From the IMG/VR virus record IMGVR_UViG_3300036770_008730: a DNA stretch of 64,000 nt, one strand, 5' to 3'. The notes beneath the pieces are model-generated. The model was not told the origin of the DNA and made no database searches. It worked only from the letters and a program-made list of their open reading frames with translations. Shown in pieces: positions 18,369 through 34,813 of the stretch; position 1 is the first letter of the stretch; every line of letters starts with the position of its first letter. The position numbers and the translations under genes are program-made. This stretch comes from a virus. Taxonomy: Duplodnaviria > Caudoviricetes.

Positions 18369-18380
18369 TTCTTAATAATC

Positions 18381-18435: not shown

Positions 18436-18852
18436 ATGAAGTATATCAAATATTTTGAAGGTAAAAAAGATAAATTTCCTAATCTTAAAAAGATTGAAAA
18501 GGATGAATTTGTAATATATGTAGGTGGTGATGCTAAATCTAATGACTATCTCACCTTCAATATGGCTAATGATGATGATATTTGGTTACATGCTATGGGT
18601 CTTCCAGGAAGTCATGTTGTTATCAAAATTAAAAGTTCCCAGAATATACAAGAAAAAACTTTACCTACAGATGTAGTCTTAAGATTTGCAGCTGAGTTGG
18701 CTAAAAAACACAGTAAAGCGCCTAAAGATCAACCCTGTGATGTTAGATGGTGCCAAAGAAAGTTTGTCTATAAAACACCAAATATGAATACAGGTGAAGT
18801 TGGAATAGAAAAGCAAATAGAAATGGATCCTACCAAAAAGATTACAATTTAA
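18436..18852 (+). CDS. Stand-alone NFACT RNA-binding (NFACT-R/DUF814) domain protein
   Basis: IYVGGDAKSNDYLT..DDIWLHAMGLPGSHVVIK..AAELA motif of the RqcH/FbpA C-terminal domain. Confidence 0.8.
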   Translation: MKYIKYFEGKKDKFPNLKKIEKDEFVIYVGGDAKSNDYLTFNMANDDDIWLHAMGLPGSHVVIKIKSSQNIQEKTLPTDVVLRFAAELAKKHSKAPKDQPCDVRWCQRKFVYKTPNMNTGEVGIEKQIEMDPTKKITI

Positions 18853-18871
18853 TTTAATATATACTATTATT

Positions 18872-20212
18872 ATGGCTGAAATTAAACCCATCTTCACAGA
18901 AGAATTACAAAAAATTCTAAAAGAATTAGAATCAGAAAATAACTATGTTGCTTTTGAGTTGATGTGGATGTCTGAACCAGATTCTAAATTTCATAACGGA
19001 TTAAGAATATCAAAAGTAGATGTTTCTAAGCAGGATTATTGCTTTGATGTTACTATTGATGGTAAAACACATCCAATGAAAATTGGAAAGTTTATAAGAT
19101 ACTTTTTAGCTAATATTATAAAGGATAATGAGGCTGTTGAATTTTCAAAACTTTATAATAATCTTAAAAAAGGTGAAAAGATACAATCCGGAACTCCTAT
19201 TACTATTGATAAGTTTTCTTACAATCCAAGAGATGTTAAAGCAACTTTTCTTTCTTTGGTTACAAAAACTTATCCTCATGGACATGAAGAAGAAGTATTA
19301 CAATTTTTACCGGGACTTAAAAAAGATCAATTTGGTAACTACTATAAAATAATAGGTAATATACAACCTCAAACTATGTTTACCTCGCATTTAGACACCG
19401 CAGATAGACAGCAAAAAGTTACAAAACTTTTTTCTATGGTTGAAGATGGTGAAGAATATATTTATACTGATGAAAGTACTATATTAGGCGCTGATGATAA
19501 GTCTGGTGTTGTGGTGATGTTATATATGATGACATATAATATACCAGGTCTTTATTATTTCTTTATTGGTGAAGAAAGAGGTGGAATCGGTTCTAATGCA
19601 TTGGCTTCTATTTTTGACCAAATTGATTATTTGAAGAATGTCAAAAGATGTATATCTTTTGATAGAAGAAACTATCACTCTGTTATCACAAGTCAATTAG
19701 GAAGAACTTGTTGTTCTAATGAGTTTGGAAATGCACTTTGTGATGAATATAATAGAAATGGATTAAGTTTATCTTTAGATAATACAGGTATTTACACAGA
19801 TTCTGCATCTTTTATGGATGATATTAGAGAATGTACTAATATATCTGTTGGTTATTTTAATGAACATACTGGAAAAGAATATCAAAATATAACTTACTTA
19901 AAGAATCTTTGTGAAGCTTCTGTTAAGGTTAATTGGAATTCTTTGCCTTCTGTTAGAAAGGCTGGATTAAATGAGGAAGTTATGAAAAAACACAGATTGC
20001 TTATCCAAGATATAAAAAAATCTGTTTTTGACTTAGAAACAAAAATAGTTGGTGAAGAAGGTAGAGTGTTTATCAGAGTTGATTTAGATGAGACTGACGT
20101 TGACGCTATTTCCAATGGCTTAAACATGGTTGATAGTATTCTTACTAAACATAAAATTAACAACAATGATGTAGTATTTACCAATACTTACATGAAAATA
20201 GAATTAAGATAA
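18872..20212 (+). CDS. Zinc aminopeptidase-like protein (M28/M20 clan MH)
   Basis: SHLDT, LGADDKSG, GEERG, SFDR, NEHT metal and catalytic motifs. Confidence 0.75.
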   Translation: MAEIKPIFTEELQKILKELESENNYVAFELMWMSEPDSKFHNGLRISKVDVSKQDYCFDVTIDGKTHPMKIGKFIRYFLANIIKDNEAVEFSKLYNNLKKGEKIQSGTPITIDKFSYNPRDVKATFLSLVTKTYPHGHEEEVLQFLPGLKKDQFGNYYKIIGNIQPQTMFTSHLDTADRQQKVTKLFSMVEDGEEYIYTDESTILGADDKSGVVVMLYMMTYNIPGLYYFFIGEERGGIGSNALASIFDQIDYLKNVKRCISFDRRNYHSVITSQLGRTCCSNEFGNALCDEYNRNGLSLSLDNTGIYTDSASFMDDIRECTNISVGYFNEHTGKEYQNITYLKNLCEASVKVNWNSLPSVRKAGLNEEVMKKHRLLIQDIKKSVFDLETKIVGEEGRVFIRVDLDETDVDAISNGLNMVDSILTKHKINNNDVVFTNTYMKIELR

Positions 20213-20213
20213 T

Positions 20214-20684
20214 ATGAATCTAAAAAAGTTTAATCAATTTGAAAAATACGAAAGTCCTTGGGATGAAGAAGATGAGTCATATTATAACGATGATCAATAT
20301 CTTTTTGGAAGACCATATCATTCAAATAAAGACAAAGGCAAATCTGAAGAAGAAGAGGAGGAAGATGAGTATGAAGATATAGATGATGATCAGAATGAGG
20401 ATATTCAACACTTGATGGATTTATTGAGAACCTATTTTGAAAACCAAGGTGTAGAAGTAGATATAGAAAATAAAGGATTAGATATCACAATATCAACTTA
20501 TCTTAATAAAGTAGAGAAATTAAAAAATATCATTAAAGTTTTTAACATAGTTAAAAAAGTTAAAAAAGATATTTTACCACAATATGAATCTGAGTTTGAA
20601 CTATGGGAAACAAAGGATAAAAGTCCTGTGCTTTATTTTAGTTTTTACTATGAAGGTGATTTCGATGATGAAAAACCATTCTAA
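20214..20684 (+). CDS. Acidic hypothetical protein with capsid-targeting-like N-terminus
   Basis: MNLKKFNQFEKYES start; poly-E/D tract. Confidence 0.55.
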   Translation: MNLKKFNQFEKYESPWDEEDESYYNDDQYLFGRPYHSNKDKGKSEEEEEEDEYEDIDDDQNEDIQHLMDLLRTYFENQGVEVDIENKGLDITISTYLNKVEKLKNIIKVFNIVKKVKKDILPQYESEFELWETKDKSPVLYFSFYYEGDFDDEKPF

Positions 20685-20718
20685 ACTTTTCTTAATTTTT
20701 TAATATTATATATACTTT

Positions 20719-21094
20719 GGGGAAGTGATAGAATAGATTCGCAGAGTGAGATCAATTATGCAGACATCGGTTGGTAAAATATCCGATTAATAAATTAGGT
20801 TACATCTGTCTTAAATGGCAAAACAAATGAAGTAGGAACCCGTGAAGATTTAGTAGCGGCTCTACAAAACAACCTGTTCTTGGTAGAAGAACTAGAGACA
20901 GCTTAACAAAGCATCTCTAAAAAATTCTCCAACTGAATCACAACAGTTCATAAAATAGTGAAACCTGAGTTGTTAGAATGGCGGGTAATTCAACTAACTA
21001 TTTTGTGAGTTTAGAAAAACTTTCTAAGTCTGTGAATGAATAGTTTATTTTAACTGAGGAAGACACCAGGGGCGGTTCCTGGTCTTCTCCACCA
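20719..21094 (+). ncRNA. ssrA: tmRNA (phage-encoded)
   Basis: 5' GGGGAAG pairs with 3' CTTCTCC-ACCA including G3:U; T-arm CCAGG-GGCGGTT-CCTGG; GCAGAC/GTCTGT helix; tag frame TAAAT-GGC...GCT-TAA at 20817-20906. Confidence 0.9.
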
Positions 21095-21098
21095 CATT

Positions 21099-21124
21099 AA
21101 AAGTCCACTTTGGTGGACTTTTTT
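21099..21124 (+). terminator. Intrinsic terminator after tmRNA
   Basis: AAAAGTCCAC-TTTG-GTGGACTTTTTT. Confidence 0.85.
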
Positions 21125-21145
21125 AGTTTAAAACATATAAATTAA

Positions 21146-21628
21146 ATGATAGATAAATTTGACGGTAAATACCGATTCTTAAGTAACTTTTATCCCTGTA
21201 AAATAGAACATCAGGGAATCACTTATCCAAGTGTGGAACATTATTATGTTGCAATGAAAGTCAATGATGAACAACTTATTAATGGTAAATATTACACTCC
21301 TGGTGATTTTAGAGAAATGATAAGTAGAGTAAAAGAAGCTGCCTTAGTTAAAAAAATTGGAAATAAAATTAAATTAAGATCTGACTGGGATAATAAAAAG
21401 TTAGATGTAATGAATTGGGCAATTAGAGAAAAATTCAAAGATGAGAATCTGAAGGAATTGTTACTTGGTACCGGTGATCAGGAACTTATTGAGGGAAATT
21501 TTTGGAAGGACTTTTTCTGGGGAGTTTGTAACGGTAGGGGCCAAAATCATTTAGGTAAAATCTTAATGATAGTTAGAGATGAGATAAGAGGAATCAAAAA
21601 GACTGGATTGGAAGAGTTTCTTAAATAG
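21146..21628 (+). CDS. NADAR (YbiA-like) family protein
   Basis: FLSNFYP..YPSVEHYY..LIEGNFWKDFFWG..GQNHLGKILM motifs. Confidence 0.85.
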   Translation: MIDKFDGKYRFLSNFYPCKIEHQGITYPSVEHYYVAMKVNDEQLINGKYYTPGDFREMISRVKEAALVKKIGNKIKLRSDWDNKKLDVMNWAIREKFKDENLKELLLGTGDQELIEGNFWKDFFWGVCNGRGQNHLGKILMIVRDEIRGIKKTGLEEFLK

Positions 21629-21677
21629 AAACTTTATTACTATTGTATGATATAAATAAAAATTAAAATTAAATAAA

Positions 21678-22622
21678 ATGGCGGCAATAAGTTATTTTGG
21701 AGGCAAAAGCTCAAATGTATTCATAGAATTCATTAATAAAAAAATACCTAAAACAGGAATAAAGACCTATTTAGAACCATTCTCTGGTTCAATGGGAACA
21801 TATATGGATGATGATAATCTTAAGTTTGATATTGTTATCTATAATGATAAAAATCGCCACCAGGTTAACCTATATAAGTGTTGTTCACAACCTGATAAGT
21901 TCTTACCTTATTTAGATAATCTAAAAAAGACATTATTATATACAACAGAAACAGATCCATTGAAAAAATGGGACTTCTACAAAAAAATTTATAAAGATTA
22001 TCAAAAGAATAATTTCCTAGATGATATGAATTTTGAAATTGGTGATTTTGAGAAAGCTTCAATTTATGCTTTTCTTATCACATCTGCTCATAATTCTGTT
22101 TATCCTCGTGGTGCGGGATTCAATGGGTATAAAAAAGATAAAGATAAACTTAAATTAGAAGTCCTTATTGATAAATTAAAGAAGAATAAATATACTTCAA
22201 AACTTCAGTCTATTACTGATTTCTTTAATGAAGATTTTGAATCTCTTATTAAGAGATATGATTCGGAAGATACTTACATATATTTAGATCCTCCGTATGC
22301 TAGATTTGATGATAAAAAGGGAGAAGATGATGCTAAAAGATTATTCTGGTATGGCGCTGATGCTGATGGTGTATTTGGACCAGCTTCTCATAGAAGACTT
22401 TTGGAGTTAATTAAAACAACAAAATCTCGTTGGTCACTTTCTTATTATTATTTTCCTTTATTGGAAGAATTATTACCGAAAGACAAATATATTTGGACTG
22501 AAAAAGAGGTATTTAGAAGTTCTGCTCAAGGTGGTAATAATGCTGATACCAAAAAAGAACAATCCAAAGGTGTTGAACTTTTAATTTTGAATTATGATCC
22601 ACAGACCGGTAAAAAATTATAA
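21678..22622 (+). CDS. DNA adenine methyltransferase (D12/Dam class)
   Basis: YFGGK, YLEPFSG and YLDPPY motifs; target sequence cannot be read from the sequence. Confidence 0.8.
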   Translation: MAAISYFGGKSSNVFIEFINKKIPKTGIKTYLEPFSGSMGTYMDDDNLKFDIVIYNDKNRHQVNLYKCCSQPDKFLPYLDNLKKTLLYTTETDPLKKWDFYKKIYKDYQKNNFLDDMNFEIGDFEKASIYAFLITSAHNSVYPRGAGFNGYKKDKDKLKLEVLIDKLKKNKYTSKLQSITDFFNEDFESLIKRYDSEDTYIYLDPPYARFDDKKGEDDAKRLFWYGADADGVFGPASHRRLLELIKTTKSRWSLSYYYFPLLEELLPKDKYIWTEKEVFRSSAQGGNNADTKKEQSKGVELLILNYDPQTGKKL

Positions 22623-22624
22623 TC

Positions 22625-22846
22625 ATGTCCTATAACACATTTCAAATAAATAATGGATCTGGTTCAAATTCATTGTCTGTTGATCCATCTGGTTTAGTAG
22701 TAATTTCGAATTTAGCTTTAATTGATGAAAAAACCGGTAATAAATGGTTAATTAAAATAGTTGATGGTGAATTGACTATTGTTCCAGTTGAGTTAGAAGA
22801 TAAAAGGAATTTTAAAATTAATTCATTGTTAAATGGTGGTATCTGA
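22625..22846 (+). CDS. Small hypothetical protein
   Basis: 73-aa ORF coupled between neighbours. Confidence 0.5.
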   Translation: MSYNTFQINNGSGSNSLSVDPSGLVVISNLALIDEKTGNKWLIKIVDGELTIVPVELEDKRNFKINSLLNGGI

Positions 22847-23216
22847 TAAACTTGATGAAATATTTAAATTGGGATTCTGGATTACTATAAATTGGAAAGA
22901 GGAATTTGGTATTTACTATAATGCTAATGATGTTTTTCCAGCTACGGCTTACTCAATTAGAATAATGGATTGTTCTTATTATACAAGTAAAACTAATCCT
23001 TATAGTTTTGAAAAAATGATTGAGGTTTGTTGTGATATGTTTTTCAATTGGTATAACAAAAATTTAAGTGTTATTAACGATTTTGACAAAAATTATAATA
23101 AGGACTCGATGTCTAAGTTAGAAGATGTTTGTTTAGGTGATGTTACTAAAGTTGTTGCTAGAGAACTTAATTTGGAAGATGTACTTAAAGTTATTATTCG
23201 TCACTATCCAGATTAA
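22833..23216 (+). CDS. Hypothetical protein
   Basis: 127-aa ORF overlapping the upstream stop. Confidence 0.5.
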   Translation: MVVSDKLDEIFKLGFWITINWKEEFGIYYNANDVFPATAYSIRIMDCSYYTSKTNPYSFEKMIEVCCDMFFNWYNKNLSVINDFDKNYNKDSMSKLEDVCLGDVTKVVARELNLEDVLKVIIRHYPD

Positions 23217-23220
23217 GAAT

Positions 23221-23898
23221 TTATAAATTTCTTCTTATTCTCATTATATGATTTTTGAGAGCATCATATTTACCATTAATATCTTTTTGAATATTGTATA
23301 GGTCTTCTAAAATAACTTTTTGCATTTCTTGATCTCTTTGCTTACTTGTTTCTATTTTAGTTTTCCAGATATCAAATAATTTTTTAGGATCATATTTATT
23401 TGTTGGATGTGCTGAAATGAGAAACTTTGGTAGCATATACATAGATATTTTATGTGCAAATATTATTTTTGATGCATCAAATTCCATAAGTGCATATTCA
23501 AATCCTATCGATTTTAATTCACTATACACCCCATCAAATGTTGCCTTTATAAAGTTATTTTTTTCATAATCCTTCTCTGATATAAACTTATCAAAGAATA
23601 GTATTCTTACTTCCAGTGGAATAAAATTAAGATTCACCCCAAAGAAAATAATTTTATCAGATACTTTTCTATAGTCAACTATAAATACCGGTGAGTTTCT
23701 CATCCAATTTGATTCATTAACACAGGTGAGGTGATAAAATCCTCCAGATTTAATATTTGCAATTCTCACATTTTGCACATCATCTGATGATTTTGAATAC
23801 ATTCCAACCAATTCAATTGAGTTTTTTTTGAAATTTTCTGCAAGTCCATCGCCATTAACAAGTAATTTCAAAGCTGTTTTTTCTATTAAATATCCCAT
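23221..23898 (-). CDS. DNA end protector-like protein (T4 gp2-like)
   Basis: FFGVNLNFIPLEVR resembles the gp2 GxNLHYLP..R motif; adjacent to the gp4-like gene. Confidence 0.5.
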   Translation of the reverse strand: MGYLIEKTALKLLVNGDGLAENFKKNSIELVGMYSKSSDDVQNVRIANIKSGGFYHLTCVNESNWMRNSPVFIVDYRKVSDKIIFFGVNLNFIPLEVRILFFDKFISEKDYEKNNFIKATFDGVYSELKSIGFEYALMEFDASKIIFAHKISMYMLPKFLISAHPTNKYDPKKLFDIWKTKIETSKQRDQEMQKVILEDLYNIQKDINGKYDALKNHIMRIRRNL

Positions 23899-23941
23899 AA
23901 ACTATATATTTAGAAAAACATTACAGATAAATATATAATCT

Positions 23942-24469
23942 ATGATAAACTCTAAGCCAAATAATTCAAATTACCATCAAGGTAATTATATACCAAAAAA
24001 TAAAGATAAAGTCATCAAATTAAATAATTATGGTGGTGTTCACTTCAGGTCTTCTTGGGAAAAGAAAATTATGACCTGGCTTGATTACAATACTTCTATC
24101 ACAAAATGGGGATCTGAATGTTTACGGATACCTTATCAAATGACACATTTTGATAATGGTGATACAAAAATTAAAGAACATTCTTATTATCCGGACTTTT
24201 ACTATGAGATGAGACTTCCGGATGGTAGTTTAAGACAGGTTGTAGTTGAGGTTAAGCCAATGAAAGAGTATAAAATGGTTCAGAGTCTAAATGAAGGTAG
24301 TTTACAAGTTCCTCAGAATGGTGCGAAAAAACTTAAGAACTTTGAATACGACTTAAAGATGGCTTATAAGAACAAGCAAAAATGGGAAACAATGATAAAC
24401 TGGTGTAATAAAAAGGGTTACGATTTTATCATCATAACAGAGGAACATCTTAAAAAGTTCAACTTATAA
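23942..24469 (+). CDS. gp4: Head completion nuclease (T4 gp4-like, TnsA-type)
   Basis: FRSSWE..WLD..KWGSE..IPY..YYPDF..VEVKP motifs. Confidence 0.8.
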   Translation: MINSKPNNSNYHQGNYIPKNKDKVIKLNNYGGVHFRSSWEKKIMTWLDYNTSITKWGSECLRIPYQMTHFDNGDTKIKEHSYYPDFYYEMRLPDGSLRQVVVEVKPMKEYKMVQSLNEGSLQVPQNGAKKLKNFEYDLKMAYKNKQKWETMINWCNKKGYDFIIITEEHLKKFNL

Positions 24470-24806
24470 TAAATTTTATAACAAAAATTGTTAGAATTAA
24501 TGCCGATGATATCAATGGTAAAAAGTTTTCGTAATAAATGAAAAACTTTCTACTAATGTGATAAATTGGAAATTGTAAAATTTTAATTAAAAATAAAATC
24601 CAGAAAAACAAGCTCATAGTTGAAAAAAGACCTATGATTATACTCAACCAATAGATAATTCGTATAAAATAAAAAAGTCTATCTATCTTGGTTAGTGACT
24701 CAATTGGTCTAAGTTTGAAATTAGAATCTAATTTTTTTTTGTTTTTTATATAATAGATTTCACTCCAGATAAAAACCAATAAAAATATATAAAATATTGA
24801 TGTCAT
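24459..24806 (-). CDS. Small membrane protein (about 3 TM segments)
   Basis: Hydrophobic segments at the N-terminus, middle and C-terminus. Confidence 0.5.
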   Translation of the reverse strand: MTSIFYIFLLVFIWSEIYYIKNKKKLDSNFKLRPIESLTKIDRLFYFIRIIYWLSIIIGLFSTMSLFFWILFLIKILQFPIYHISRKFFIYYENFLPLISSALILTIFVIKFIIS

Positions 24807-25114
24807 TTTGTTATTAGCTCTTCAAATTTTATTAAATTATTTAATTCTACTTGTGATAGTTTGATATTTTTTTCAACAATTAATTTTTGATAAACCTCAT
24901 CTTCAACAAATGCTTCTATAGACTGCCCCACTATTCTTTCGTAACGATCAGGTATTTCTTTTCCAATTCTTATACTATAAATATTTTCTATGTATTTATC
25001 TTTTTCAATGGAATCAATGTGAATTGTACATCCGTCTGGAATTGGATTACTTCCCTTAATTGATTCTTCCCAAAGTTGTAAGATGACTTTATTCATTTTT
25101 ATAATTTTATGCAT
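24803..25114 (-). CDS. Hypothetical protein
   Basis: 103-aa ORF with upstream AAACTTT-N12-ATATAA. Confidence 0.5.
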   Translation of the reverse strand: MHKIIKMNKVILQLWEESIKGSNPIPDGCTIHIDSIEKDKYIENIYSIRIGKEIPDRYERIVGQSIEAFVEDEVYQKLIVEKNIKLSQVELNNLIKFEELITK

Positions 25115-25174
25115 ATTTTATATTAATTTTTCAACAAAGTTTATTTCAATTTATAAAATAAAAAAAAACAACTT

Positions 25175-26311: not shown

Positions 26312-26317
26312 AAAAAT

Positions 26318-26345
26318 AAACCCACTCAATTTGAGTGGGTTTTTT
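26318..26345. terminator. Bidirectional terminator
   Basis: AAACCCACTCAA-T-TTGAGTGGGTTTTTT between convergent genes. Confidence 0.8.
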
Positions 26346-26365
26346 AATATATTTTCTATTATTGA

Positions 26366-26731
26366 TTATAAAGAGTGAAGACCTTGTCCGTCATTACTTC
26401 CTTCTATTGATATCAACCTTATTAAGTGTTCATTGTCTCCTTTTTTCTTGTATATTTCGTTATATCCTTTAGCAATTCCTCTTTTGAAGACCTCGGTAAA
26501 ATAGGCAAAAGCATTTACTGATTTTTCCTCATTAAAATTATACCAATTTTGGAACATATCTAAAAGACCTGACTGGTAGCAATCTAACTTATCATCATTT
26601 GACCAGTATCTCATTTTTTTGATTGTTTTTTTAGCTAGTAATTCTAGCATTTTTTCTGCGTTTCTTGTAAGTTTTCCCTGTGCTTTAGACACTATGACCT
26701 CGACGTAGAGGTCCTTATTATTTAAGTAAAT
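26366..26731 (-). CDS. gp55: Late-transcription sigma factor (T4 gp55-like); likely true start upstream of the listed GTG, at a non-canonical codon near 26731
   Basis: FNEEKSVNAFAYFTEV matches gp55 NPFAYFTQI; in-frame upstream YLNNKDLY matches the gp55 YVNNKELY N-terminus. Confidence 0.75.
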   Translation of the reverse strand: MYLNNKDLYVEVIVSKAQGKLTRNAEKMLELLAKKTIKKMRYWSNDDKLDCYQSGLLDMFQNWYNFNEEKSVNAFAYFTEVFKRGIAKGYNEIYKKKGDNEHLIRLISIEGSNDGQGLHSL

Positions 26732-26860: not shown

Positions 26861-26863
26861 AGA

Positions 26864-28147
26864 TTAGTATTTTATTCTTTCTTTGTATTGAAGTTCTTTA
26901 ATTGCTTTTAGTTCAGCATCTAAATTTGATTTTCTTTTCTCAAGATTACTCAGAGCTGTTTTTAATACATTTGATTCTCCAATCATTTGTATTGAACCTT
27001 TAACTTTTTCAATGTTGAATTCAACATCCTCAAGTTTCAAAGTTACTTCTCTTTCTTTATCTTCTAATTTTCTTTTCACGATTAATTCTTTTCCTAGTTT
27101 ATTTTCGTAGAAAAAAGTTAAGTCGTAATTCAATTCGTTTCTTACTTCATTAACCAATTCAATAGCTGATTCGTATTTGAAGAATGAGTTACCATATCTT
27201 TCATCACATCTATAAACAAAAGTGTTATTTTTGTAATTGAATGCAAAAACTTCTAAATAAGGATTTATAAGGTTGTTAACTTTTTTAACAACATCTAACT
27301 CAACAAACTTATCAATATTTTTATTAACTTCTAAAAGGATTGGATAAAAGTTCTTATTTACAATTGGAACAATTGGAGAAGAGAATAAACTTTCTAAAGT
27401 TGTTTCCTCATTCATTTCGTCATCATTTATGAAAATTGAACCTTTTTTGCTAACTGAAAGACCAATAGTCAAATATTCAGAAATTCTGAAATTTACTCTA
27501 TCTTCATTGATTGTTGCATATTTCATAGCTGACTCTAACATTCTCATCGTTCTTAAGTCTTCTTCAGATTTAATGTTATTTTCTAATAATGTTTTTTCTA
27601 TGATATTTTCAGTTAAAAGAAACCAAGAATCTTTCACTAAGGCGATGTGTCCATTTTCAACTTGCTCTACTATAGTAAAAACTGACTCACCTTTACCACC
27701 ACTTAATAGATTTGTTCTTTGTTCAGGTGATTTAGTTAGATTATGAACAAATAATTTTACCTCTGGAACCCAATCATAAATAGCTAATTCATTCAGAATC
27801 TTAGACATTCTGTCTTGGTCATTCTCTAAATTAATTGTCTGAAGTAATACATTTATTGGCTGTCTATATAATTCTCCTTGATTTTTGGTATTAAGAACGC
27901 TGTATAAATTCTTCAATTCATATAGAAGTTCGTAATTTTTCATATCATCATTCAAATTTTCCAACAGCTTTTTAACACTCTTATCATAAGAGTAAGCTTT
28001 TAATCTTTCATTAAGTGAACCGATAATTGCTTTTTCGGGTAATTCGTTGCAAGCATTCATATGTCCTTCAATTACATAAGCAATTTCTTCTTGTTCAAGA
28101 GACAGATTTTTCTTGAAATTATAGAGTTCAAGTTTAAGATTCTTCAT
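26864..28147 (-). CDS. Hypothetical coiled-coil protein (late gene)
   Basis: 427-aa ORF; AATATATA upstream at 28178-28185; C-terminal heptads. Confidence 0.6.
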   Translation of the reverse strand: MKNLKLELYNFKKNLSLEQEEIAYVIEGHMNACNELPEKAIIGSLNERLKAYSYDKSVKKLLENLNDDMKNYELLYELKNLYSVLNTKNQGELYRQPINVLLQTINLENDQDRMSKILNELAIYDWVPEVKLFVHNLTKSPEQRTNLLSGGKGESVFTIVEQVENGHIALVKDSWFLLTENIIEKTLLENNIKSEEDLRTMRMLESAMKYATINEDRVNFRISEYLTIGLSVSKKGSIFINDDEMNEETTLESLFSSPIVPIVNKNFYPILLEVNKNIDKFVELDVVKKVNNLINPYLEVFAFNYKNNTFVYRCDERYGNSFFKYESAIELVNEVRNELNYDLTFFYENKLGKELIVKRKLEDKEREVTLKLEDVEFNIEKVKGSIQMIGESNVLKTALSNLEKRKSNLDAELKAIKELQYKERIKY

Positions 28148-28213
28148 ATTTTTAAAGTAATTTTTTTTCTTATGGTATATATATTATTAAATAAAACTCA
28201 TTTTTTACCATTT

Positions 28214-29323
28214 TCATATTGTTGGTGATTCTCCATCATTTTGTGTGTTTGGATCTTGTGAGTTGGGGTTATTAATATTCCCAGAAGCTCTTTCACGAGC
28301 TCTAAGTATATTATTGAACCATCTTGTTCTCTTTGGAGACACTGATTGATACTCGTCATTTATAAATTGACCATACTGACTATTTGCTCCTACATTCTGA
28401 TTATCAAAGAATGATAATGAGTTTGTTCCAGAATTTTCAATTCCTCCTGTTGAAGAGAATTGACTTGGTATGTTGTTTTGATTTTGAGCGAGATTATCAT
28501 AACTTTGACCAATGTTCTGAGTAGTTAGATTTGCGGTTTGTGTGTTATAAGAATTTCCTGATAAATTCTGACTGCTTCCAGGTATAATAACATCGTTATT
28601 AAAGAAAGATGAAAACCCACCTGTCATCGTATGACCGTTTGAATCTTTCATACCACTTCCGAATGGTCTTGGATATCCAGTTTGAACAACTCTATCTCTT
28701 CTAAACGAAGGGTAATAAGTTTCTACGGTAAATGAGCACTTTAATTTTATATTATTGTCACTGGTGAGATTTTTTTCTCTTGACATTTCTATACTATTTG
28801 TATCTGGCATCAGAATTACAGCATCGATATTCATAAAATTATGCTCAAAATACATATATTTGTAAATCCACATAGTATCCATAAGAGCTTGGCTACATTT
28901 AAAAGTATCAATTTCGTTATTTAGTAATATATCTAGTTCGTAGTTTACTGTTATTGGAATCGCTCTTACTCTCGCTAGAACTTTTCTAATCTCTATTTCA
29001 TTTTCAACAACCATTCTGAGCCAAACATTTGGATTTGCAAATTCATCTGATTTTATATTAAATCCAGTCATAGTTAGATGACCTCTAGGTATTTGATCTG
29101 TATTTAGTTCTATAAATCTATTTTCCGAAACTATATCATCCGAAAATGAGTCTAGAAGAAATCTTTCGTCTCCGGTTAGTGAATAATAAAAAGGAACCTG
29201 AACAAACCTATCTCCTGATGAAAATCTGTTTATCCATTTGACTTGCCCTTCTAATGTGTCTAAAACACAAACCGTTAAATCTCTGAAAAATACGTCCTCA
29301 AAATTAAATCTTTCTCCAATCAT
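28214..29323 (-). CDS. gp15: Tail sheath stabiliser/terminator (T4 gp15-like)
   Basis: SGDRFVQVPFYY resembles gp15 SGDKFIRVPITY; PITVNYELDIL strand. Confidence 0.6.
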   Translation of the reverse strand: MIGERFNFEDVFFRDLTVCVLDTLEGQVKWINRFSSGDRFVQVPFYYSLTGDERFLLDSFSDDIVSENRFIELNTDQIPRGHLTMTGFNIKSDEFANPNVWLRMVVENEIEIRKVLARVRAIPITVNYELDILLNNEIDTFKCSQALMDTMWIYKYMYFEHNFMNIDAVILMPDTNSIEMSREKNLTSDNNIKLKCSFTVETYYPSFRRDRVVQTGYPRPFGSGMKDSNGHTMTGGFSSFFNNDVIIPGSSQNLSGNSYNTQTANLTTQNIGQSYDNLAQNQNNIPSQFSSTGGIENSGTNSLSFFDNQNVGANSQYGQFINDEYQSVSPKRTRWFNNILRARERASGNINNPNSQDPNTQNDGESPTI

Positions 29324-29385
29324 GCAATTATATATTAAATAAACTTTCTCTCAAAGAGAGATATAAAAAATGTAAAAACAAATCT

Positions 29386-30348
29386 ATGTCAGTAAAGTCA
29401 TTATTACTTTGGGAAAAATGGAGACCAAAAAAATTCGAAGATATTATTCTTATTCCGAGAATAAGAAAGCAATTTGAGTCTGGGATATCTCAACACTATA
29501 TTTTCTATGGACACTACGGGTCTGGCAAAACATCATTGGCTAGAATATTAATAGGTAAGTATAGTAAAGATACACCTTATTTGGAACTTAATTGTTCTAT
29601 GGATACATCTATAGATGTTTTGAGGTCTGAGATAGATACTTTTTGTAAAGTTAGACCTATGATGGATGTTGAATCTGAAATTAAATACGTTTTTCTGGAT
29701 GAATTCGAAAGAGTTTCTCCACAATTTCAAGATGCATTCAAAGCCTTTATCGAAAAGTATAATAACAAAGTTAGATTCATAATCTGTACTAATCACATAA
29801 ACAAAATTTCTGAAGGAATAAAATCCAGGATAAAATCAATAAACTTTGATTGTATCGATTTATCAGAAGAAAAATTTATAAAAATTGAACTTTTTAAGAG
29901 AATTTCTAATTTGATATTACCATCTGAGAAAAAACAAATATCAAAAGAAAATTTAATTAGTATAATAAATAAAACTTTCCCCGATTTTCGAGGAGTTTTA
30001 GTAGAGGTTCAGAATTTTTTAGAAACTGGTGATAATAATATTAATAGTAGTAATATTTCAAATTCTCTAAAATTTGAACTTTTTAATTTAGTTTTTTCAA
30101 AGTCAAATTATAATGAAACGTATCAGTTTGTTTTGAAAAATTTTGGTCCAGATAAAGTTGACATTTTGATGAAACAACTAGGAAAACCTTTTATCGATTT
30201 TTGTATCGAAAATAATAAATCTATTGATAAACTCTTTGAATGTAATTTTATTTTAGCAGACTACTCTGATAAACTTGACACAAACACTGACCCTATTGTT
30301 TTGGCAATGACAATCATAGGTAAATTTCAATTATTACTATCCGAATAG
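29386..30348 (+). CDS. gp44: Clamp loader subunit (T4 gp44/RFC small subunit)
   Basis: LWEKWRPKKFEDII, GHYGSGKTS, VFLDEFE, FIICTN. Confidence 0.85.
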   Translation: MSVKSLLLWEKWRPKKFEDIILIPRIRKQFESGISQHYIFYGHYGSGKTSLARILIGKYSKDTPYLELNCSMDTSIDVLRSEIDTFCKVRPMMDVESEIKYVFLDEFERVSPQFQDAFKAFIEKYNNKVRFIICTNHINKISEGIKSRIKSINFDCIDLSEEKFIKIELFKRISNLILPSEKKQISKENLISIINKTFPDFRGVLVEVQNFLETGDNNINSSNISNSLKFELFNLVFSKSNYNETYQFVLKNFGPDKVDILMKQLGKPFIDFCIENNKSIDKLFECNFILADYSDKLDTNTDPIVLAMTIIGKFQLLLSE

Positions 30349-30369
30349 TTATATTTTTATATATAGTTT

Positions 30370-30744
30370 ATGGATTTAAACTTCATAGATTTTTATATTC
30401 TTTATCCTGGTCATCCAGGTTATTCCTCAATTGAATTAATAGAGGATGATTTAACTAAAGTAATAGTTCAAAAATACCAAATGATTATCTTTACAAATAA
30501 AGGAGATGTTTTTGGTTTACCAGACTTGGGTGCGAATCTACTTGAATTATTACATGATACTAGCTATTCCGCCCAGACTGTTGAGGAAGATTTAAATAAT
30601 CAGATTAGATTGTATATTCCTGAACTACAGAATCTTGAGTACGATATAAAAGTTAGCTTTTTTCAACATCCTGAAAGATTTGAAGAATTTATGGTTATAG
30701 ATTTTAGTTTTAATGGTATGTTAGTCTCTACAATAGTTCAATAA
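30370..30744 (+). CDS. gp25: Baseplate wedge subunit (gp25-like)
   Basis: FTNKGDVFGLPDLGANL..IRLYIPEL motif. Confidence 0.65.
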   Translation: MDLNFIDFYILYPGHPGYSSIELIEDDLTKVIVQKYQMIIFTNKGDVFGLPDLGANLLELLHDTSYSAQTVEEDLNNQIRLYIPELQNLEYDIKVSFFQHPERFEEFMVIDFSFNGMLVSTIVQ

Positions 30745-30928
30745 AGTCTTTGAAATTTAATACCGATTCTTTCATCATTTTTTTAAAAATACCCATTGTA
30801 TAAGCCCAATTATCTCTTTTACCTTTTCTTTCCTTAGATAGTTTTTTTGCCTTCTGCCATCTTTCTTCTACTTCCGATATTTTCATCTTTTTTTTCTTTG
30901 CTAATTTTTTCACATAACTTGTTGGCAT
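30728..30928 (-). CDS. Small basic hypothetical protein
   Basis: 66-aa Lys-rich ORF with AATATATA upstream (30949-30956). Confidence 0.55.
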   Translation of the reverse strand: MPTSYVKKLAKKKKMKISEVEERWQKAKKLSKERKGKRDNWAYTMGIFKKMMKESVLNFKDFIELL

Positions 30929-30979
30929 AAAATCAATTTACTTTTTCATATATATTATTTTTTAATATATAAAACTTCA

Positions 30980-32071
30980 ATGAAATATTTAGTTAAGTTT
31001 AAATTATTTGAGGAAATAAATTATAGAGATATCTCTGAAATTGTAACAGGGTTTGATGATTACTTTACCGTATCTTTTGAATTTGAAATCGAAACTGAAA
31101 GTCAAGATGATATAAAATTAAACTTTGAAGATTTAGATGATGAGATTGCTGAGGACATCATTGCCATAATTTTTAAAGATTTAGAAGTAAGAGGTAGAAC
31201 TAATAAAAAGTTTGTTAGAGATTTAGTTTATTCACTTTTAGACTATGTAGATAATGATGTTATTGATATAGAAACATATAATTCGATGTTTTCTGATGGA
31301 GTCGCTTCAAATAGCGAACAGATAAATATACTTAGACATGCAAAGGCTGTAATATCTAGTTTTATCGGCATTGAGGATTTGACACATCTTAAAAAGATGG
31401 TAAAATTACATTTATCTGACTTTTATAGAAAATGGTACAGAAGGATTGATTTTATTGGTGATGCTACCTTAGATAGGGGTATAGAAATTAAACCTAAAAC
31501 ATATCTAAAAAGTATTTCTGAATCTATTGAAATGTTGAACGACTTTTTTACAAATATGAAATCTCAGGATTATTGGGTTTTTTCGGAAAGAACTGGACTA
31601 CATATAAATGTTGGAACAAATAAAAAAAGTGAGTGGAATTCGATTAAAGGTCTATTGATTTTAAATGATATTTCAAAATCTGGAACACCTCTAGTATTTA
31701 AAGATATGACCTGGCGAATGAATAATAACTTTTGTGGATCACTTATATCTCAAATAAATAATATGAGTGATATTGAAAAATTAGATTTAAAATCTAAGAT
31801 TGATTTAAATAATGTCAACTCAGCAGAAGATATACTAAATCAATTTTTAGTAGAAAGAATAAAACTATGGGGTGTCAAAAACTTTGGATTTAATATAACA
31901 AAACTAGATCAGAATTATGTTGAATTTCGATATGTTGGTGGTATTATAAATTCAGAAGTTGTAATTGAAAAGCTTAAATATTTCTGTTTTTTGGTTTATT
32001 GTATGACAAATAAAGAATATAAAAGAAAAGAATATTTAGGTAAATTGTATAAGTTTGTTGATAATCTTTAA
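30980..32071 (+). CDS. Putative amidoligase (COOH-NH2 ligase, glutamine-synthetase fold) with capsid-targeting-like N-terminus
   Basis: SFEFEIE, DATL..GIEI, TGLHINVG, YVEFRYVGG motifs. Confidence 0.65.
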   Translation: MKYLVKFKLFEEINYRDISEIVTGFDDYFTVSFEFEIETESQDDIKLNFEDLDDEIAEDIIAIIFKDLEVRGRTNKKFVRDLVYSLLDYVDNDVIDIETYNSMFSDGVASNSEQINILRHAKAVISSFIGIEDLTHLKKMVKLHLSDFYRKWYRRIDFIGDATLDRGIEIKPKTYLKSISESIEMLNDFFTNMKSQDYWVFSERTGLHINVGTNKKSEWNSIKGLLILNDISKSGTPLVFKDMTWRMNNNFCGSLISQINNMSDIEKLDLKSKIDLNNVNSAEDILNQFLVERIKLWGVKNFGFNITKLDQNYVEFRYVGGIINSEVVIEKLKYFCFLVYCMTNKEYKRKEYLGKLYKFVDNL

Positions 32072-32722
32072 CTACTTAATTGGACAGTGATTTGCGCTGT
32101 AAATATATTTCCAATTTCTTTTAATATTCACACCTATTTTTTCAGCGGTTGTTATTATATCCTCTAAACATTCAGAATCAGAACCACCAACAATAATAAC
32201 TTCTTTTCCTTTCATACTTAGAAGAAGTTTATATAGTTTTATAGGAACATGAAACCACCTATGATTATTTCCTATGTAAACAATTAATGTTCCTTCTTTT
32301 GTTTCAAAACATTCTCCCTTTTGAAGTGTTCCGTCTAATTCTTTGCTTTTGATTAGTTTGTAGGTTTTCTCATCCAAAATACCCTTATTACCATCACTAT
32401 TTTTCATTTTTGTATTATAGAAGTCAGAATCAACATCATAGTTGTATCTCTTTTCAATTAAATCCTTTTGATTTGGAAAATGATATAAGTCATCGTGTAT
32501 TGGTATCTCTGGATTTTCATCATATAAGTATTGTTTGTCTACATCTTTGCCATCAACATGATTATCAAATATTTGATAGACATGTTGAAAAGTCTCACAG
32601 TATTTTTTCAATTCATTCAAATACATTTCTGAAAAGTACTTTCTAAAGGATTTCTGAACATCAACTACAATAAGAGTATCTCCTATCTGTTCAAAGTCTT
32701 CATATAGTTTAAGGTATCTCAT
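32072..32722 (-). CDS. Isochorismatase/nicotinamidase-like cysteine hydrolase with capsid-targeting-like N-terminus
   Basis: LIVVDVQ (Asp), LIEKRY (Lys), VIIVGG..SECL (Cys) triad-like motifs. Confidence 0.55.
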   Translation of the reverse strand: MRYLKLYEDFEQIGDTLIVVDVQKSFRKYFSEMYLNELKKYCETFQHVYQIFDNHVDGKDVDKQYLYDENPEIPIHDDLYHFPNQKDLIEKRYNYDVDSDFYNTKMKNSDGNKGILDEKTYKLIKSKELDGTLQKGECFETKEGTLIVYIGNNHRWFHVPIKLYKLLLSMKGKEVIIVGGSDSECLEDIITTAEKIGVNIKRNWKYIYSANHCPIK

Positions 32723-32738
32723 TAATTATATATTAAAT

Positions 32739-32764
32739 AAAAAACCCATCATTTCTGATGGGTC
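32739..32764 (-). terminator. Intrinsic terminator
   Basis: AAAAACCCATCA-TTTC-TGATGGGT; T-run on the minus strand. Confidence 0.7.
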
Positions 32765-32784
32765 GATGATAATATATTTTAAGA

Positions 32785-33432
32785 TTATTCTTCTGGAAGT
32801 TTTTCTTCTCCCTCTTCTTGTCCTTCCTCTTTCTCTTCTTGTCCTTCCTCTTTCTCTTCTTGTCCTTCCTCTTTCTCTTCTTGTCCTTCCTCTTTCTCTT
32901 CTTGTCCTTCCTCTTTCTCTTCTTGTCCTTGACCTTGTCCCTGTGGTTCTTCAAATTCTTCTTCTTTTTGTCCTTGGCCTTGAGTTTGTCCTTGGCCTTG
33001 AGTTTGTCCTTGACCTTGAGTTTGTCCTTGACCTTGAGTTTGTCCTTGACCTTGAGTTTGTCCTTGAGCTTGTGGTTGAGTTTCCGCTTGAGCTTGTGGT
33101 TGAGTTTCTGTTTGAACTTGAGTTTGACCTTGTCCTTGTGTCTGAGTCTGACCACCCATTATCGCACCTCCTGGAATTTTCTCAACATCTAAGAAATTCA
33201 TATTAATATACTTAACAATTTCTTCAGCGATATCAACATCTCCAAAAAACTGACGAAGATTCTTACCAGTTGTATCTTTAACTTTTTTAACATAAGCATT
33301 AATCAAAGATTGAGGAATATCAATCATAGTTTTAACCTTATATATGTCGTTTACTTGAAGAACTGATTCTTTGATAATCTCTTCTCTGTTCTTCTTAACA
33401 CGATATTTTTCGAATGTTCTAATATGCTTCAT
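32785..33432 (-). CDS. Hypothetical protein: capsid-targeting-like N-terminus, small folded domain, QG and acidic repeat tail
   Basis: MKHIRTFEKY start behind AATATATA; (QGQGQT)n and (EEKEEGQ)n. Confidence 0.7.
   Translation of the reverse strand: MKHIRTFEKYRVKKNREEIIKESVLQVNDIYKVKTMIDIPQSLINAYVKKVKDTTGKNLRQFFGDVDIAEEIVKYINMNFLDVEKIPGGAIMGGQTQTQGQGQTQVQTETQPQAQAETQPQAQGQTQGQGQTQGQGQTQGQGQTQGQGQTQGQGQKEEEFEEPQGQGQGQEEKEEGQEEKEEGQEEKEEGQEEKEEGQEEKEEGQEEGEEKLPEE
32815..33070 (-). repeat. Two coding tandem arrays: 21-bp (EEKEEGQ) x ~5 and 18-bp (QGQGQT) x ~5
   Basis: TTGTCCTTCCTCTTTCTCTTC and TTGTCCTTG(A/G)CCTTGAGT units on the + strand. Confidence 0.9.
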
Positions 33433-33489
33433 TTTTTTTAAGTATATTTTTTATAGGTTATATATTAACTCTAAAAAGTCATTTTTTTC

Positions 33490-33981
33490 TCATGGTTTCA
33501 ATATTGTTGCTGTCACAAATCCGACTACTAAACCAATTCCTCCTCCAATTAAAATTTTACCTTTTGTTCTTTTTATTTTATTAAGATGTAAGTCAATTTC
33601 CTTATTTTTATTCTCAATTTCCTTCTTGTACGTTTCTTCTGTTATTTTATAATTTGAAACTTGTAAATTAAGATTATTGATTTCTTTATCTTTACCTATT
33701 ATCAAACTATTTTTATTTTTTATCAATTTATCTTGAGAGTTGATTGTTTTATCCTTTTCCTCTATTGTTCTTATACAAGAAGAATCCACATTATTAATTT
33801 GAGTTGACATTTTTTCATAAAGTGGTAATAGATCTGTTTTATTGTCTAATGCCTGAGCTTGTTCGAGTGTTAGAACAACAAGTTTTGTTCCTACAGAATC
33901 CACTGTGAATAATGGATATTCAATCTGTGCAAAGATTTTTGATGATAAAATCATCATTAGTATTATTAAAATATGTTTCAT
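33490..33981 (-). CDS. Exported coiled-coil protein with C-terminal TM (spanin-like partner)
   Basis: Signal peptide ending IFA|Q, heptad region, C-terminal GGGIGLVVGFVTATIL. Confidence 0.45.
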   Translation of the reverse strand: MKHILIILMMILSSKIFAQIEYPLFTVDSVGTKLVVLTLEQAQALDNKTDLLPLYEKMSTQINNVDSSCIRTIEEKDKTINSQDKLIKNKNSLIIGKDKEINNLNLQVSNYKITEETYKKEIENKNKEIDLHLNKIKRTKGKILIGGGIGLVVGFVTATILKP

Positions 33982-34394
33982 TTTTTTGATTTAGATTTTA
34001 GTGAGTTTAATAAATCGTTTCCATCTCTATTTGCTGGATGTTTTTTTATTTCCTCTATTTTGATTTTAGTTTCCTCTAATTCTTTTCTTAACTTATCCAA
34101 TTCTTGTCTAGATAGGTTTGCTTTATTTTTTTGGTCTTTAACCTCTTTTTCTAATACATTAGATCTATAGATTAGAGAGTCGTTATGTTTTCTTACAACT
34201 GTCAGGTCTAATTCTAATTTTTCTCTCTCTTTTAAGAGAGAGTCTCTTTTTTGTTGTATCATTTTATTTTCCTCTCTTAGTTTTTCGAGTTCTTTTTTAT
34301 ATTGTTTATCTCCTTCATATAGACTTTTCCACACAAAAACACAACAAATTAGTGTTAATACTAGTATCAAAATTGTTTTTAAATCTATTTTCAT
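33978..34394 (-). CDS. N-terminal TM plus coiled-coil protein (i-spanin-like)
   Basis: N-terminal hydrophobic helix followed by long heptads; 4-nt overlap with the partner gene. Confidence 0.45.
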   Translation of the reverse strand: MKIDLKTILILVLTLICCVFVWKSLYEGDKQYKKELEKLREENKMIQQKRDSLLKEREKLELDLTVVRKHNDSLIYRSNVLEKEVKDQKNKANLSRQELDKLRKELEETKIKIEEIKKHPANRDGNDLLNSLKSKSKK

Positions 34395-34528
34395 ATTATT
34401 TTCTATTTTCGATATATATAAAAATTATTTTATCTTTCAATTGAAATTTATTATCTTTGAGAAAATAGATTATCAAACAAATAAAATTATAAATATATAA
34501 TATATACTTAAACATAAAATTTCAAATT

Positions 34529-34813
34529 ATGGCAACAATCACAAAAAAGAAGACACAGTCTAAAGCTGACGAAATACTCTCTAAGCCTTATCGATTGATA
34601 CTTCACAATGATGATTATAATACCTTTGATTGGGTAATCACTTGTCTTATGAAGGTTTGTAACCATGAGTTCGAACAGGCCTCACAATGTGCACATATTG
34701 TCCATTATAAAGGCAAATGTGATGTGAAGTATGGAGACTTAGAAATCATTTCTGAAATGAAGAATAAACTTGCTAGTGCTGGTCTTAGTGTTACTATGGA
34801 AGTAAACAGTTAA
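34529..34813 (+). CDS. clpS: ATP-dependent Clp protease adaptor ClpS
   Basis: LILHNDDYNTFDWV..L..AHIVHYKGKCDVKYG. Confidence 0.85.
   Translation: MATITKKKTQSKADEILSKPYRLILHNDDYNTFDWVITCLMKVCNHEFEQASQCAHIVHYKGKCDVKYGDLEIISEMKNKLASAGLSVTMEVNS

Follow-up and report, generated by a model that had tools for sequence, protein, structure and literature searches.

A 64-kb stretch of viral DNA (IMG/VR record IMGVR_UViG_3300036770_008730, Caudoviricetes), hereafter called the window, contains a gene for a divergent transfer-messenger RNA (tmRNA) downstream of its capsid gene. A preliminary description of positions 18436–34813 had proposed a single module in which this tmRNA, a stand-alone NFACT-R protein and the protease adaptor ClpS act together. 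Here the interval is read, with moderate confidence, as two separate things, a tmRNA cassette and an independent clpS gene, which share a clade and do not form a demonstrable module. As part of that whole reading, the first would be a late accessory cassette that has terminators at both ends and directly follows the capsid gene, with the divergent tmRNA as its core. Statements on whole genomes rest on complete relatives of the window. The features of the cassette are the following.

16674–18368, plus strand: gp23-type major capsid protein gene, the anchor of the cassette (Pfam Gp23, 5.8e-28)
18385–18411, plus strand: intrinsic-terminator-like hairpin, an 11-bp stem and then a T run; upstream cassette boundary
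18436–18852, plus strand: stand-alone NFACT-R gene, 138 aa (Pfam, family profile, Foldseek)
18872–20212, plus strand: gene for a predicted clan-MH (M20/M28-like) dinuclear metallo-exopeptidase, 446 aa (phrog_4191, PepT alignment)
20214–20684, plus strand: small acidic protein gene, 156 aa, with a disordered acidic N-half and a C-terminal alpha/beta domain
20719–21094, plus strand: divergent tmRNA gene, 376 nt (acceptor, T-arm, covariation, tag frame)
20817–20906, plus strand: tag frame, 29 codons and TAA, with the resume codon GGC after UAAAU; product (A)GKTNEVGTREDLVAALQNNLFLVEELETA
21065–21083, plus strand: T-arm of the tmRNA, 6-bp stem and 7-nt loop GGCGGTT, compensatory changes at 3 stem pairs
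21099–21122, plus strand: intrinsic terminator, five bases past the tmRNA CCA; downstream cassette boundary

The tmRNA gene and its tag

The stretch 16674–22622 shows ~73% DNA identity to LR745206 (634,780 bp) and LR756502 (642,428 bp), over 80–93% of its length. Both are complete uncultured phage genomes. The capsid genes of LR756504, LR756501, and LR756503 match this stretch more weakly. The window is assigned by sequence to a megaphage of the Mahaphage clade. These relatives are the members of that clade with genomes of at least 634 kb, and the predicted hosts are Bacteroidetes (Al-Shayeb et al. 2020, PMC7162821).

The peptidase gene and the tmRNA gene both lie where they had been placed at first, and for the tmRNA this is borne out by covariation and by the tag frame. 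The tmRNA occupies the 462-nt gap between 20684 and 21146. The 5' strand of its acceptor (20719–20725) pairs with 21084–21090 in 7 bp (GGGGAAG/CUUCUCC), which include G3:U70. The discriminator A is nucleotide 21091, and CCA is encoded at 21092–21094. This encoded CCA is unique to the window among the homologous tmRNAs; the relatives have CAA or CTA. The T-arm hairpin stacks directly on the acceptor. A D-loop-like segment, UAGAUUCGCAG, is present, and the consensus also contains a long covarying P2 helix.

Homologues were taken from LR745206, LR756502, four IMG/VR lineages, and two more metagenome lineages; the figures below are for eight lineages, the window included. The G3:U pair is kept in all eight, while the rest of the acceptor covaries (GGGGAUG/CAUCUCC, GGGGGUG/CACCUCC), with changes at positions 5 and 6 (A-U, G-C, G-U; U-A, A-U). 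The eight-lineage consensus has 65 pairs, with 96.9% of cells paired and compensatory changes at 21 pairs. In a control that shifts the 3' partners by 1–3 columns, 37–49% of cells are paired and only 2–7 pairs are compensatory. From six sequences, RNAalifold derives 87 pairs; compensatory changes affect 26 of these, and the covariation term is -5.84.

The tag frame runs from GGC (20817) to TAA (20904–20906). In 8/8 lineages it stays open, is free of indels, and terminates at one common column. Stops interrupt the other two frames. The tag of the window is GKTNEVGTREDLVAALQNNLFLVEELETA. The tags of the other seven lineages are GNVNEVVTREDLVAALQNNMLLVEEPATV, DNVSEVGTREDIVSALQNNMISVGDLAVA, GNVNEVGTREDLVAALQNNMLLVEEPAMV, GNVTEVASKEDLVFALQNNLLNVGELETA, GNVTEVASKEDLVFALQNNLLNVGELVEA, GKTNEVASREELVAALQNNMLKVEEPSLV, and GKTNEVATREDLVAALQNNMLLVEEPATV. 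Their interior is conserved as EV..[RK]E[DE][LI]V.ALQNN. Their C-terminal ends are variable (ETA, ATV, AVA, AMV, VEA, and SLV) and never -LAA. Compared with ordinary SsrA tags, the pattern is reversed, since in the phage tag the interior is conserved and the C-terminal end varies.

With bacterial and phage SsrA (RF00023), the RNA shares the GGGG acceptor, G3:U70, the discriminator A, CCA, the stacked T-arm, the D-loop-like segment, the long P2, the resume codon after UAAAU, the frame ending in UAA, and 3' hairpins. It differs in the T-loop, the 6-bp T-stem, and the 29-residue non-LAA tag. The gene is also placed in the head-gene module, not near tRNAs. The sequence comparison supports well that the tmRNA is genuine though very divergent, a variant invisible to the standard detectors, with an atypical tag, and new relative to known tmRNAs.

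More distant genomes contain tmRNAs of other grades. LR756504 has one at 280507–280863 on the minus strand, which scores 65 bits with Rfam and is missed by ARAGORN. Its tag has 24 residues, DNVNSFEQSILNELFAPVEMAVAA, and ends in AVAA; it starts with DNVN-, which resembles the start DNVS- of the LR756502 tag. Judged from these sequences, this tmRNA is a bridge between the window type and the recognised tmRNAs. In LR756501, the candidate at 718388–718731 on the minus strand is weak (21 bits), has a 33-residue frame ending in LVLA, and is likewise missed by ARAGORN. An nhmmer profile of the window type did not reach the LR756504 tmRNA and found the LR756501 candidate at E 1.9e-4. LR756500 (462 kb) contains a fully canonical tmRNA (95 bits) with the tag GNNAEMRMAA. 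No second tmRNA candidate was found in LR745206 or LR756502.

All or part of 18436–21200 is seen in 20 public runs. Three runs of the subsurface metagenome from which the window comes contain 100% of the sampled words. Six of the 20 are metatranscriptomes, freshwater ones included, each with 6–11% of the sampled words. Four RNA runs from four studies were compared with 18000–21700, and their contigs fall on 20730–21075, the tmRNA. In one run, contigs additionally cover the 3' part of the capsid gene. The NFACT-R, peptidase, acidic protein, and NADAR genes have almost no cover by RNA contigs, which says nothing on their expression. Several of the contigs are from relatives that have a common tag core and diverge on both sides of it. 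This pattern fits an abundant stable RNA; it is supportive and not proof, because contigs neither fix the ends of a transcript nor strictly rule out DNA. Upstream of the tmRNA there is no conspicuous sigma-70-type promoter, with 29 sites against 31.6 expected. Terminator-like sites number 5 in 6 kb (1.4 expected), and there is none on the plus strand between the two cassette boundaries.

Canonical SmpB (167–181 bits) is encoded by LR745206, LR756502, LR756504, LR756501, and a 483-kb IMG/VR genome, which include every complete relative carrying the window-type tmRNA. SmpB and tmRNA are ~128 kb apart in LR745206 and ~136 kb apart in LR756502. The presence of tmRNA and SmpB in huge phages has been reported already, with tmRNAs annotated by ARAGORN (Al-Shayeb et al. 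2020, PMC7162821). It is well supported that this phage lineage has a private trans-translation system.

The stand-alone NFACT-R protein and its leader

A solo NFACT-R gene had been noted directly after the capsid gene, and it is indeed there, beginning 68 nt past the capsid gene stop. Pfam NFACT-R_1 (PF05670) matches the open reading frame (ORF) at 3.5e-14 (53.7 bits, cut-off 29.8), and the product aligns to the NFACT-R domains of Bacillus subtilis RqcH and Streptococcus suis FBPS via DDIWLH..PGSHVVI. A profile of the 21-member family reaches RqcH residues 445–554 at 2.9e-23 and CCDC25 at 8e-12. The AlphaFold model (pLDDT, the predicted local distance difference test, 87.7) is matched by Foldseek to FBPS, RqcH, CCDC25, NEMF, and Rqc2 and to no other protein significantly. 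E is 3e-9 to 1e-6 for FBPS, RqcH, and CCDC25, and the probability is 1.00 for these three and NEMF. D48, W50, H52 (within DIWLH), G58, S59, and H60 are invariant in the 21 sequences. A basic N-terminal segment is also conserved, with E8, K10, K13, F14, and P15.

More than 100 metagenomic homologues of 123–159 aa were found, and the two that were looked up have the same capsid-linked context. The solo protein has no PHROG match. In the phage collection, bacterial-RqcH-like records aside, the solo form is limited to LR745206 and LR756502. Records of Listeria, Staphylococcus, and Enterococcus and MT835503 were considered as solo phage NFACT-R and rejected, as they look like bacterial DNA. In MT835503.1 ("UNVERIFIED Bacteriophage sp."), the match lies inside a 568-aa ORF (2529–4235), the full size of RqcH. 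When 185,579 species genomes were scanned with the NFACT-R profile, only four distant RqcH-like matches came back (38–39% identity, in Clostridia and Coatesbacteria) and 0 in Bacteroidota; as the scan is pattern-seeded, this absence is weak evidence. No paper on a phage NFACT-R was found in the literature. The family is regarded on these comparisons as phage-specific, and the solo protein as a known domain in a new, viral form.

The phage protein resembles RqcH, NEMF, and Rqc2 in the sequence and fold of this domain, including DxWxH...PGSH. Compared with RqcH, it has only 138 aa and adds the basic N-terminal segment and a leader similar to a capsid-targeting sequence. NFACT-N, HhH, and CC-M are absent from these 138 aa, and a stop and a terminator lie directly upstream; therefore, the protein cannot select tRNA-Ala or perform the alanine tailing of RqcH. 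RqcH touches the A-site finger of the 50S subunit through its NFACT-R domain, and 50S binding is lost when DWH is mutated (bioRxiv 10.1101/2020.09.03.281279). With Jlp2 and CCDC25, the phage protein shares the solo NFACT-R architecture (fold TM 0.62–0.67). It is nearer to RqcH than to CCDC25 in sequence (2.9e-23 against 8e-12), lacks a C-terminal coiled coil, and is viral. H52 and H60 are spaced by 8 residues, as are H44 and H52 of Jlp2. We take H52 to be the probable counterpart of Jlp2 H44 from this motif spacing and from the CCDC25 sequence, not from an alignment by a tool.

The yeast solo protein Jlp2 has been reported to be a His44-dependent, peptidyl-tRNA-hydrolysing release factor, and the same preprint raises the question of whether NFACT-R domains with this His form a general release-factor class (bioRxiv 10.1101/2025.09.04.673968). 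Fused to ThiI, the NFACT-R domain also occurs as a module that binds tRNA (PMC4075521). A ribosome-directed role of the phage protein is plausible from its motif and similarity. Most likely it binds 50S or peptidyl-tRNA complexes, and it may promote release as well.

These results bear on the proposal that the phage touches both bacterial rescue routes. It stands for trans-translation, with the tmRNA here and SmpB in relatives. For the host RqcH route it is doubtful; the DWH ribosome-binding motif is kept, and the protein is too short for tailing. Competition with a host RqcH is doubtful because the Bacteroidota control genome has no NFACT-R; in this one control, Bacteroides thetaiotaomicron, neither NFACT-R nor ClpS was found.

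The N-terminus of the protein, MKYIKYFE, is similar to the capsid-targeting sequence of phage T4. The head module of the window is T4-like as well, with portal, prohead protease, gp23-type capsid, and terminase large subunit (TerL). The two head genes upstream of the capsid gene and the ORFs that start with the leader pattern M[KR][YHI][LIV][KRLV].[FY] are as follows.

12165–13862, plus strand: portal gene (Portal_T4)
14430–16595, plus strand: prohead protease gene (Peptidase_S77, T4-type)
18436, 30980, 32722 (minus strand), 33432 (minus strand), 43956, and 54826 (minus strand): leader-bearing ORFs, otherwise unrelated (for example MKYLKLYE)
about 56727, 57701, and 59062 (all minus strand): further ORFs with the pattern at their start

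The pattern starts nine ORFs of the window and has 0 internal occurrences among 370 Met. The residue E8 is invariant across 21 members of the NFACT-R family. By analogy with T4, leader-bearing ORFs may encode capsid cargo proteins. The leader resembles the T4 sequence, and therefore NFACT-R may be packaged and injected. If it is injected, it would act at the onset of infection, independently of the late tmRNA.

It can thus be speculated that NFACT-R is a capsid-loaded effector, a late product of the capsid operon whose MKYIKYFE leader would send it to the prohead and be cut after E8 by the prohead protease. Once injected with the DNA, it would occupy the A-site-finger site of the host 50S subunit or release peptidyl-tRNA at the start of infection, in a tmRNA-independent way. 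This is a tentative possibility, which is not favored. It draws on the restriction of the leader to ORF starts, the invariant E8, the constant position of the gene directly after the capsid gene, and the T4-type prohead protease upstream. Against it, an AT-rich genome will in part produce N-termini rich in Lys and Tyr anyway, and the adjoining peptidase has no leader.

Neighbouring genes, ClpS, and their distribution

The cassette genes are closely spaced. The gaps are 19 nt between NFACT-R and peptidase, 1 nt between peptidase and acidic ORF, and 34 nt between acidic ORF and tmRNA. The order capsid, NFACT-R, peptidase, acidic protein, tmRNA, NADAR, and Dam is kept in LR745206, LR756502, and four IMG/VR lineages. 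Two more metagenome lineages, one of them represented by a 527-kb contig, show the same order and encode an NFACT-R with 55–59% protein identity to that of the window. The last two genes of this order are the following.

21146–21628, plus strand: NADAR-domain protein gene (phrog_1017), following the tmRNA in all relatives
21678–22622, after the NADAR gene: Dam-type N6-adenine methyltransferase gene, always downstream of the tmRNA

NADAR enzymes reverse the ADP-ribosylation of nucleic-acid bases, and this gene may therefore be a counter-defence gene; it is probably no part of rescue.

The peptidase matches phrog_4191 ("peptidase") at 2.6e-67 with core residues about 127–421. Its match to Pfam M28 is sub-threshold (0.0066; 16.6 bits, cut-off 21.3). 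An alignment to PepT/tripeptidase spans the metal motifs TSHxDT, GADDKSG, and GEExG (His, Asp, Glu-Glu); the candidates for the last two ligands (Asp/Glu and His), SFDRR and NEHT, were read by eye only. The core and the His/Asp/Glu-Glu motifs are shared with the phage peptidases of phrog_4191, to which the window protein adds an N-terminal domain of ~150 residues and a C-terminal extension. The core is seen in 396 phage records, mostly ~43-kb podophages of Klebsiella, Pectobacterium, and Vibrio, which have no tmRNA, and phages of Thermus. The family is common in such small phages, and therefore its position in the cassette is no evidence for a rescue role. Megaphage genomes encode several paralogues each; tblastn finds 5 places in LR745206. 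Paralogues lie 10–20 kb downstream in relatives (46229–46411 of locus L001 and 36320–37057 of locus L002). The window contains a second exopeptidase, an S51 homologue of the dipeptidase E/cyanophycinase type (54896–55615, minus strand).

The acidic protein has an invariant C-terminal Pro-Phe and no Pfam, PHROG, or NCBIfam match. Its modelled fold is alpha-beta-beta-alpha-beta-beta. The nearest structures, among them tail-terminator/neck proteins and also ribosomal protein S6, reach Z 7–8.5, which is borderline and in the noise range. The model suggests that this protein may be structural and not related to rescue. For its size and its place just before the tmRNA, it was also considered as a divergent SmpB and rejected, given its acidic disordered N-half, different fold, and lack of a family match. 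Neither the peptidase nor the acidic protein has a demonstrated link to rescue.

The mixed functions of the neighbours (NADAR, Dam methylase, a TnsA-like nuclease, and GlnA-like) raise a further explanation. The post-capsid stretch could be a neutral accessory hot-spot that gathers unrelated cargo profiting from strong late transcription. The tmRNA would then be the sole rescue part, and NFACT-R would bind RNA or DNA in another way, in ThiI-like tRNA handling or CCDC25-like DNA binding. Both activities have precedents, in the ThiI fusion that binds tRNA (PMC4075521) and in the DNA binding of CCDC25 (PDB 7EOF, 8WOH). Yet the DWH motif and the nearest similarity of the protein point to the ribosome-bound domain of RqcH, and the order from NFACT-R to tmRNA persists to ~55% protein identity. 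This explanation is considered rather unlikely.

The clpS gene lies outside the cassette, next to the terminase gene.

34529–34813, plus strand: gene for a ClpS adaptor homologue, 94 aa (Pfam), convergent with the TerL gene and overlapping its stop
34810–36948, minus strand: TerL gene, which adjoins clpS here and also in LR745206 and LR756502

A clpS gene about 13 kb away had been pointed out, and it is confirmed by Pfam ClpS (PF02617; 2e-19, 69.6 bits, cut-off 23) and by the NCBIfam ClpS core, at 13.4 kb from the tmRNA. In alignment with Escherichia coli ClpS, N27, D28, D29, and H59 correspond to N34, D35, D36, and H66, and HYxGK is kept; the pocket residues T38 and M40 of E. coli are N and F in the phage protein. 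It shares the ClpS core with other jumbo-phage ClpS and has an N-terminal extension of ~20 residues. By tblastn, ClpS-like sequences are present in 3 of 50,697 phage records, all Mahaphages. ClpS in jumbo phages is known (Iyer et al. 2021, PMC7824862; Atu_ph07 gp708, PMC6102473), and its presence alone adds little. ClpS, SmpB, and the peptidase are all of known kinds.

ClpP was not found in the 64-kb window. The ClpS-bearing relatives encode two ClpP homologues (184–261 bits) and an AAA_2 Hsp100 of 666–719 aa. The parts of the Clp machinery in LR745206 are at 75197–75721, 123568–124089, and 424469–424990, and parts of the same kinds are present in LR756502 and LR756504. LR756501 encodes a 752-aa Hsp100 with Clp_N, but neither ClpS nor ClpP. 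From these homologies, the partner of ClpS may be the phage Hsp100, and ClpP and Hsp100 may form a phage-own Clp protease.

In LR745206 and LR756502, the block that extends from ORF o225 to TerL (about 23.2–37 kb in the window) has the reverse orientation and is found across the capsid gene, on its other side (window 22833–36948 compared with L001 1055–11937 and L002 199–13746). It contains the TnsA-like, GlnA-like, clamp loader, ClpS, and TerL genes. The glutamine-synthetase-like gene (25175–26311, 378 aa, with Gln-synt_N and Gln-synt_C) is conserved in LR745206 and LR756502. Within the rearranged block, clpS keeps TerL as its neighbour and has no positional tie to the cassette.

The distribution of the genes is as follows.

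Window: tmRNA of this type; ClpS and NFACT-R present; SmpB and ClpP none in 64 kb
LR745206: tmRNA of this type; SmpB, ClpS, and NFACT-R present; two ClpP and Hsp100 of ~710 aa
LR756502: tmRNA of this type; SmpB, ClpS, and NFACT-R present; three ClpP-family matches (two of 234–260 bits, one weaker) and Hsp100 of ~710 aa
483-kb IMG/VR genome: tmRNA of this type; SmpB and ClpS present; NFACT-R present by synteny; Hsp100
LR756504: Rfam-detectable tmRNA; SmpB and ClpS present; NFACT-R absent; ClpP and Hsp100
LR756501: weak tmRNA candidate; SmpB present; ClpS and NFACT-R absent; 752-aa Hsp100 with Clp_N, no ClpP
LR756500: canonical tmRNA; SmpB, ClpS, and NFACT-R absent; ClpP-family matches

The distribution is nested, widest for tmRNA, then SmpB, then ClpS, and narrowest for NFACT-R. 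One gain per gene suffices for it, and therefore co-occurrence cannot separate function from descent.

On the original proposal, the tmRNA, NFACT-R, and ClpS, with the peptidase, are an integrated module that rewires translation quality control, for example to survive abortive infection that cleaves tRNA or mRNA while phage proteins are spared. All parts are together in every genome with NFACT-R (the window, LR745206, LR756502, and the 483-kb IMG/VR genome), and the NFACT-R-bearing genomes also encode two ClpP and Hsp100. ClpS is known to block the degradation of SsrA-tagged proteins by ClpAP (Dougan et al. 2002, as cited in a passage of PMC6102473). Distance is no objection, and clustering is uninformative here, because even SmpB and tmRNA lie ~128 kb apart. 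Against this, the nested co-occurrence comes from a single clade, with one evolutionary event per gene. LR756504 has ClpS but no NFACT-R, LR756501 has a weak tmRNA candidate and SmpB but no ClpS, and LR756500 has a canonical tmRNA but none of SmpB, ClpS, and NFACT-R. Compared with the cassette, the block that includes clpS is rearranged, and peptidases of this family are frequent in small phages that lack a tmRNA. Co-occurrence and synteny had been suggested as the check. They uphold the order of the cassette; clpS is rearranged and the distribution is nested rather than strictly linked. With ClpS by TerL in a rearranged block and a peptidase common elsewhere, the claim of one module is not sustained, and it is judged improbable.

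Proposed trans-translation by megaphages

The favored reading remains that of a tmRNA cassette and an independent clpS gene. Under it, the divergent tmRNA and the phage-encoded canonical SmpB would give megaphages infecting Bacteroidota their own trans-translation. Alanyl-tRNA synthetase would charge the phage tmRNA via G3:U70, and SmpB would bring it into stalled ribosomes. Translation would resume at GGC and append the phage-specific 29-residue tag. The solo NFACT-R would bind 50S or peptidyl-tRNA complexes, perhaps as a Jlp2-like release factor, and its N-terminus, similar to a capsid-targeting sequence, may load it into the capsid. ClpS, encoded by an independent gene beside the terminase gene, would most likely serve the phage Clp machine.

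Several points weigh against this reading. ARAGORN reports 0 tmRNA in the window or the homologous loci, relaxed settings included. The Rfam tmRNA model (RF00023) has no match at the gathering score in the window, the best score being 9.6 bits (at the 3' end, with the intergenic stretch isolated) against a gathering threshold of 47. The T-loop is GGCRGUN across the lineages and lacks the T-Psi-C (TTCRA) consensus. The detectors fail because of this loop and the T-stem of six pairs. The pseudoknots PK1–PK4 are not established; nested helices were modelled, with hairpins at the positions of PK1 and PK2–4. The third-codon bias of the tag frame is weak, since 11, 13, and 18 columns vary at the first, second, and third codon positions. 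As RNA evidence there are contigs assembled from RNA libraries, in which carry-over of DNA is possible and ends are not defined. SmpB was not found within the 64-kb window. In one lineage (L005), the tmRNA is followed by the peptidase and acidic genes in inverted orientation, and neither NFACT-R nor a capsid gene was found in the 3.4 kb upstream of it. Adjacency within one clade is the sole tie of NFACT-R to the tmRNA. Clp_N was not detected in the Hsp100 of the ClpS-carrying genomes LR745206, LR756502, and LR756504.

A bolder combination can be put forward, to which a low probability is given. The solo NFACT-R would be a viral counterpart of Jlp2, a His-dependent, GGQ-independent release factor made with the capsid, possibly packaged, and acting on obstructed host 50S subunits. 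Beside it, the tmRNA would rescue 70S ribosomes and append a long non-degron tag read by phage factors. If this is true, the largest known phages carry a two-armed private ribosome-rescue system.

The tmRNA lineage also concerns annotation. The largest phage genomes were searched for tmRNA with ARAGORN (PMC7162821), and the phages concerned here were left with SmpB and no apparent partner RNA, because ARAGORN and Rfam miss this lineage. A covariance model made from the eight-lineage alignment would close the gap. The compact 138-aa viral NFACT-R, with its motif invariant, is a convenient test object for the question of whether His-bearing NFACT-R domains form a class of release factors. The 29-residue tag, conserved in its interior and without LAA, is a natural case in which it can be asked whether phages want release, tagging, or another fate of the product.

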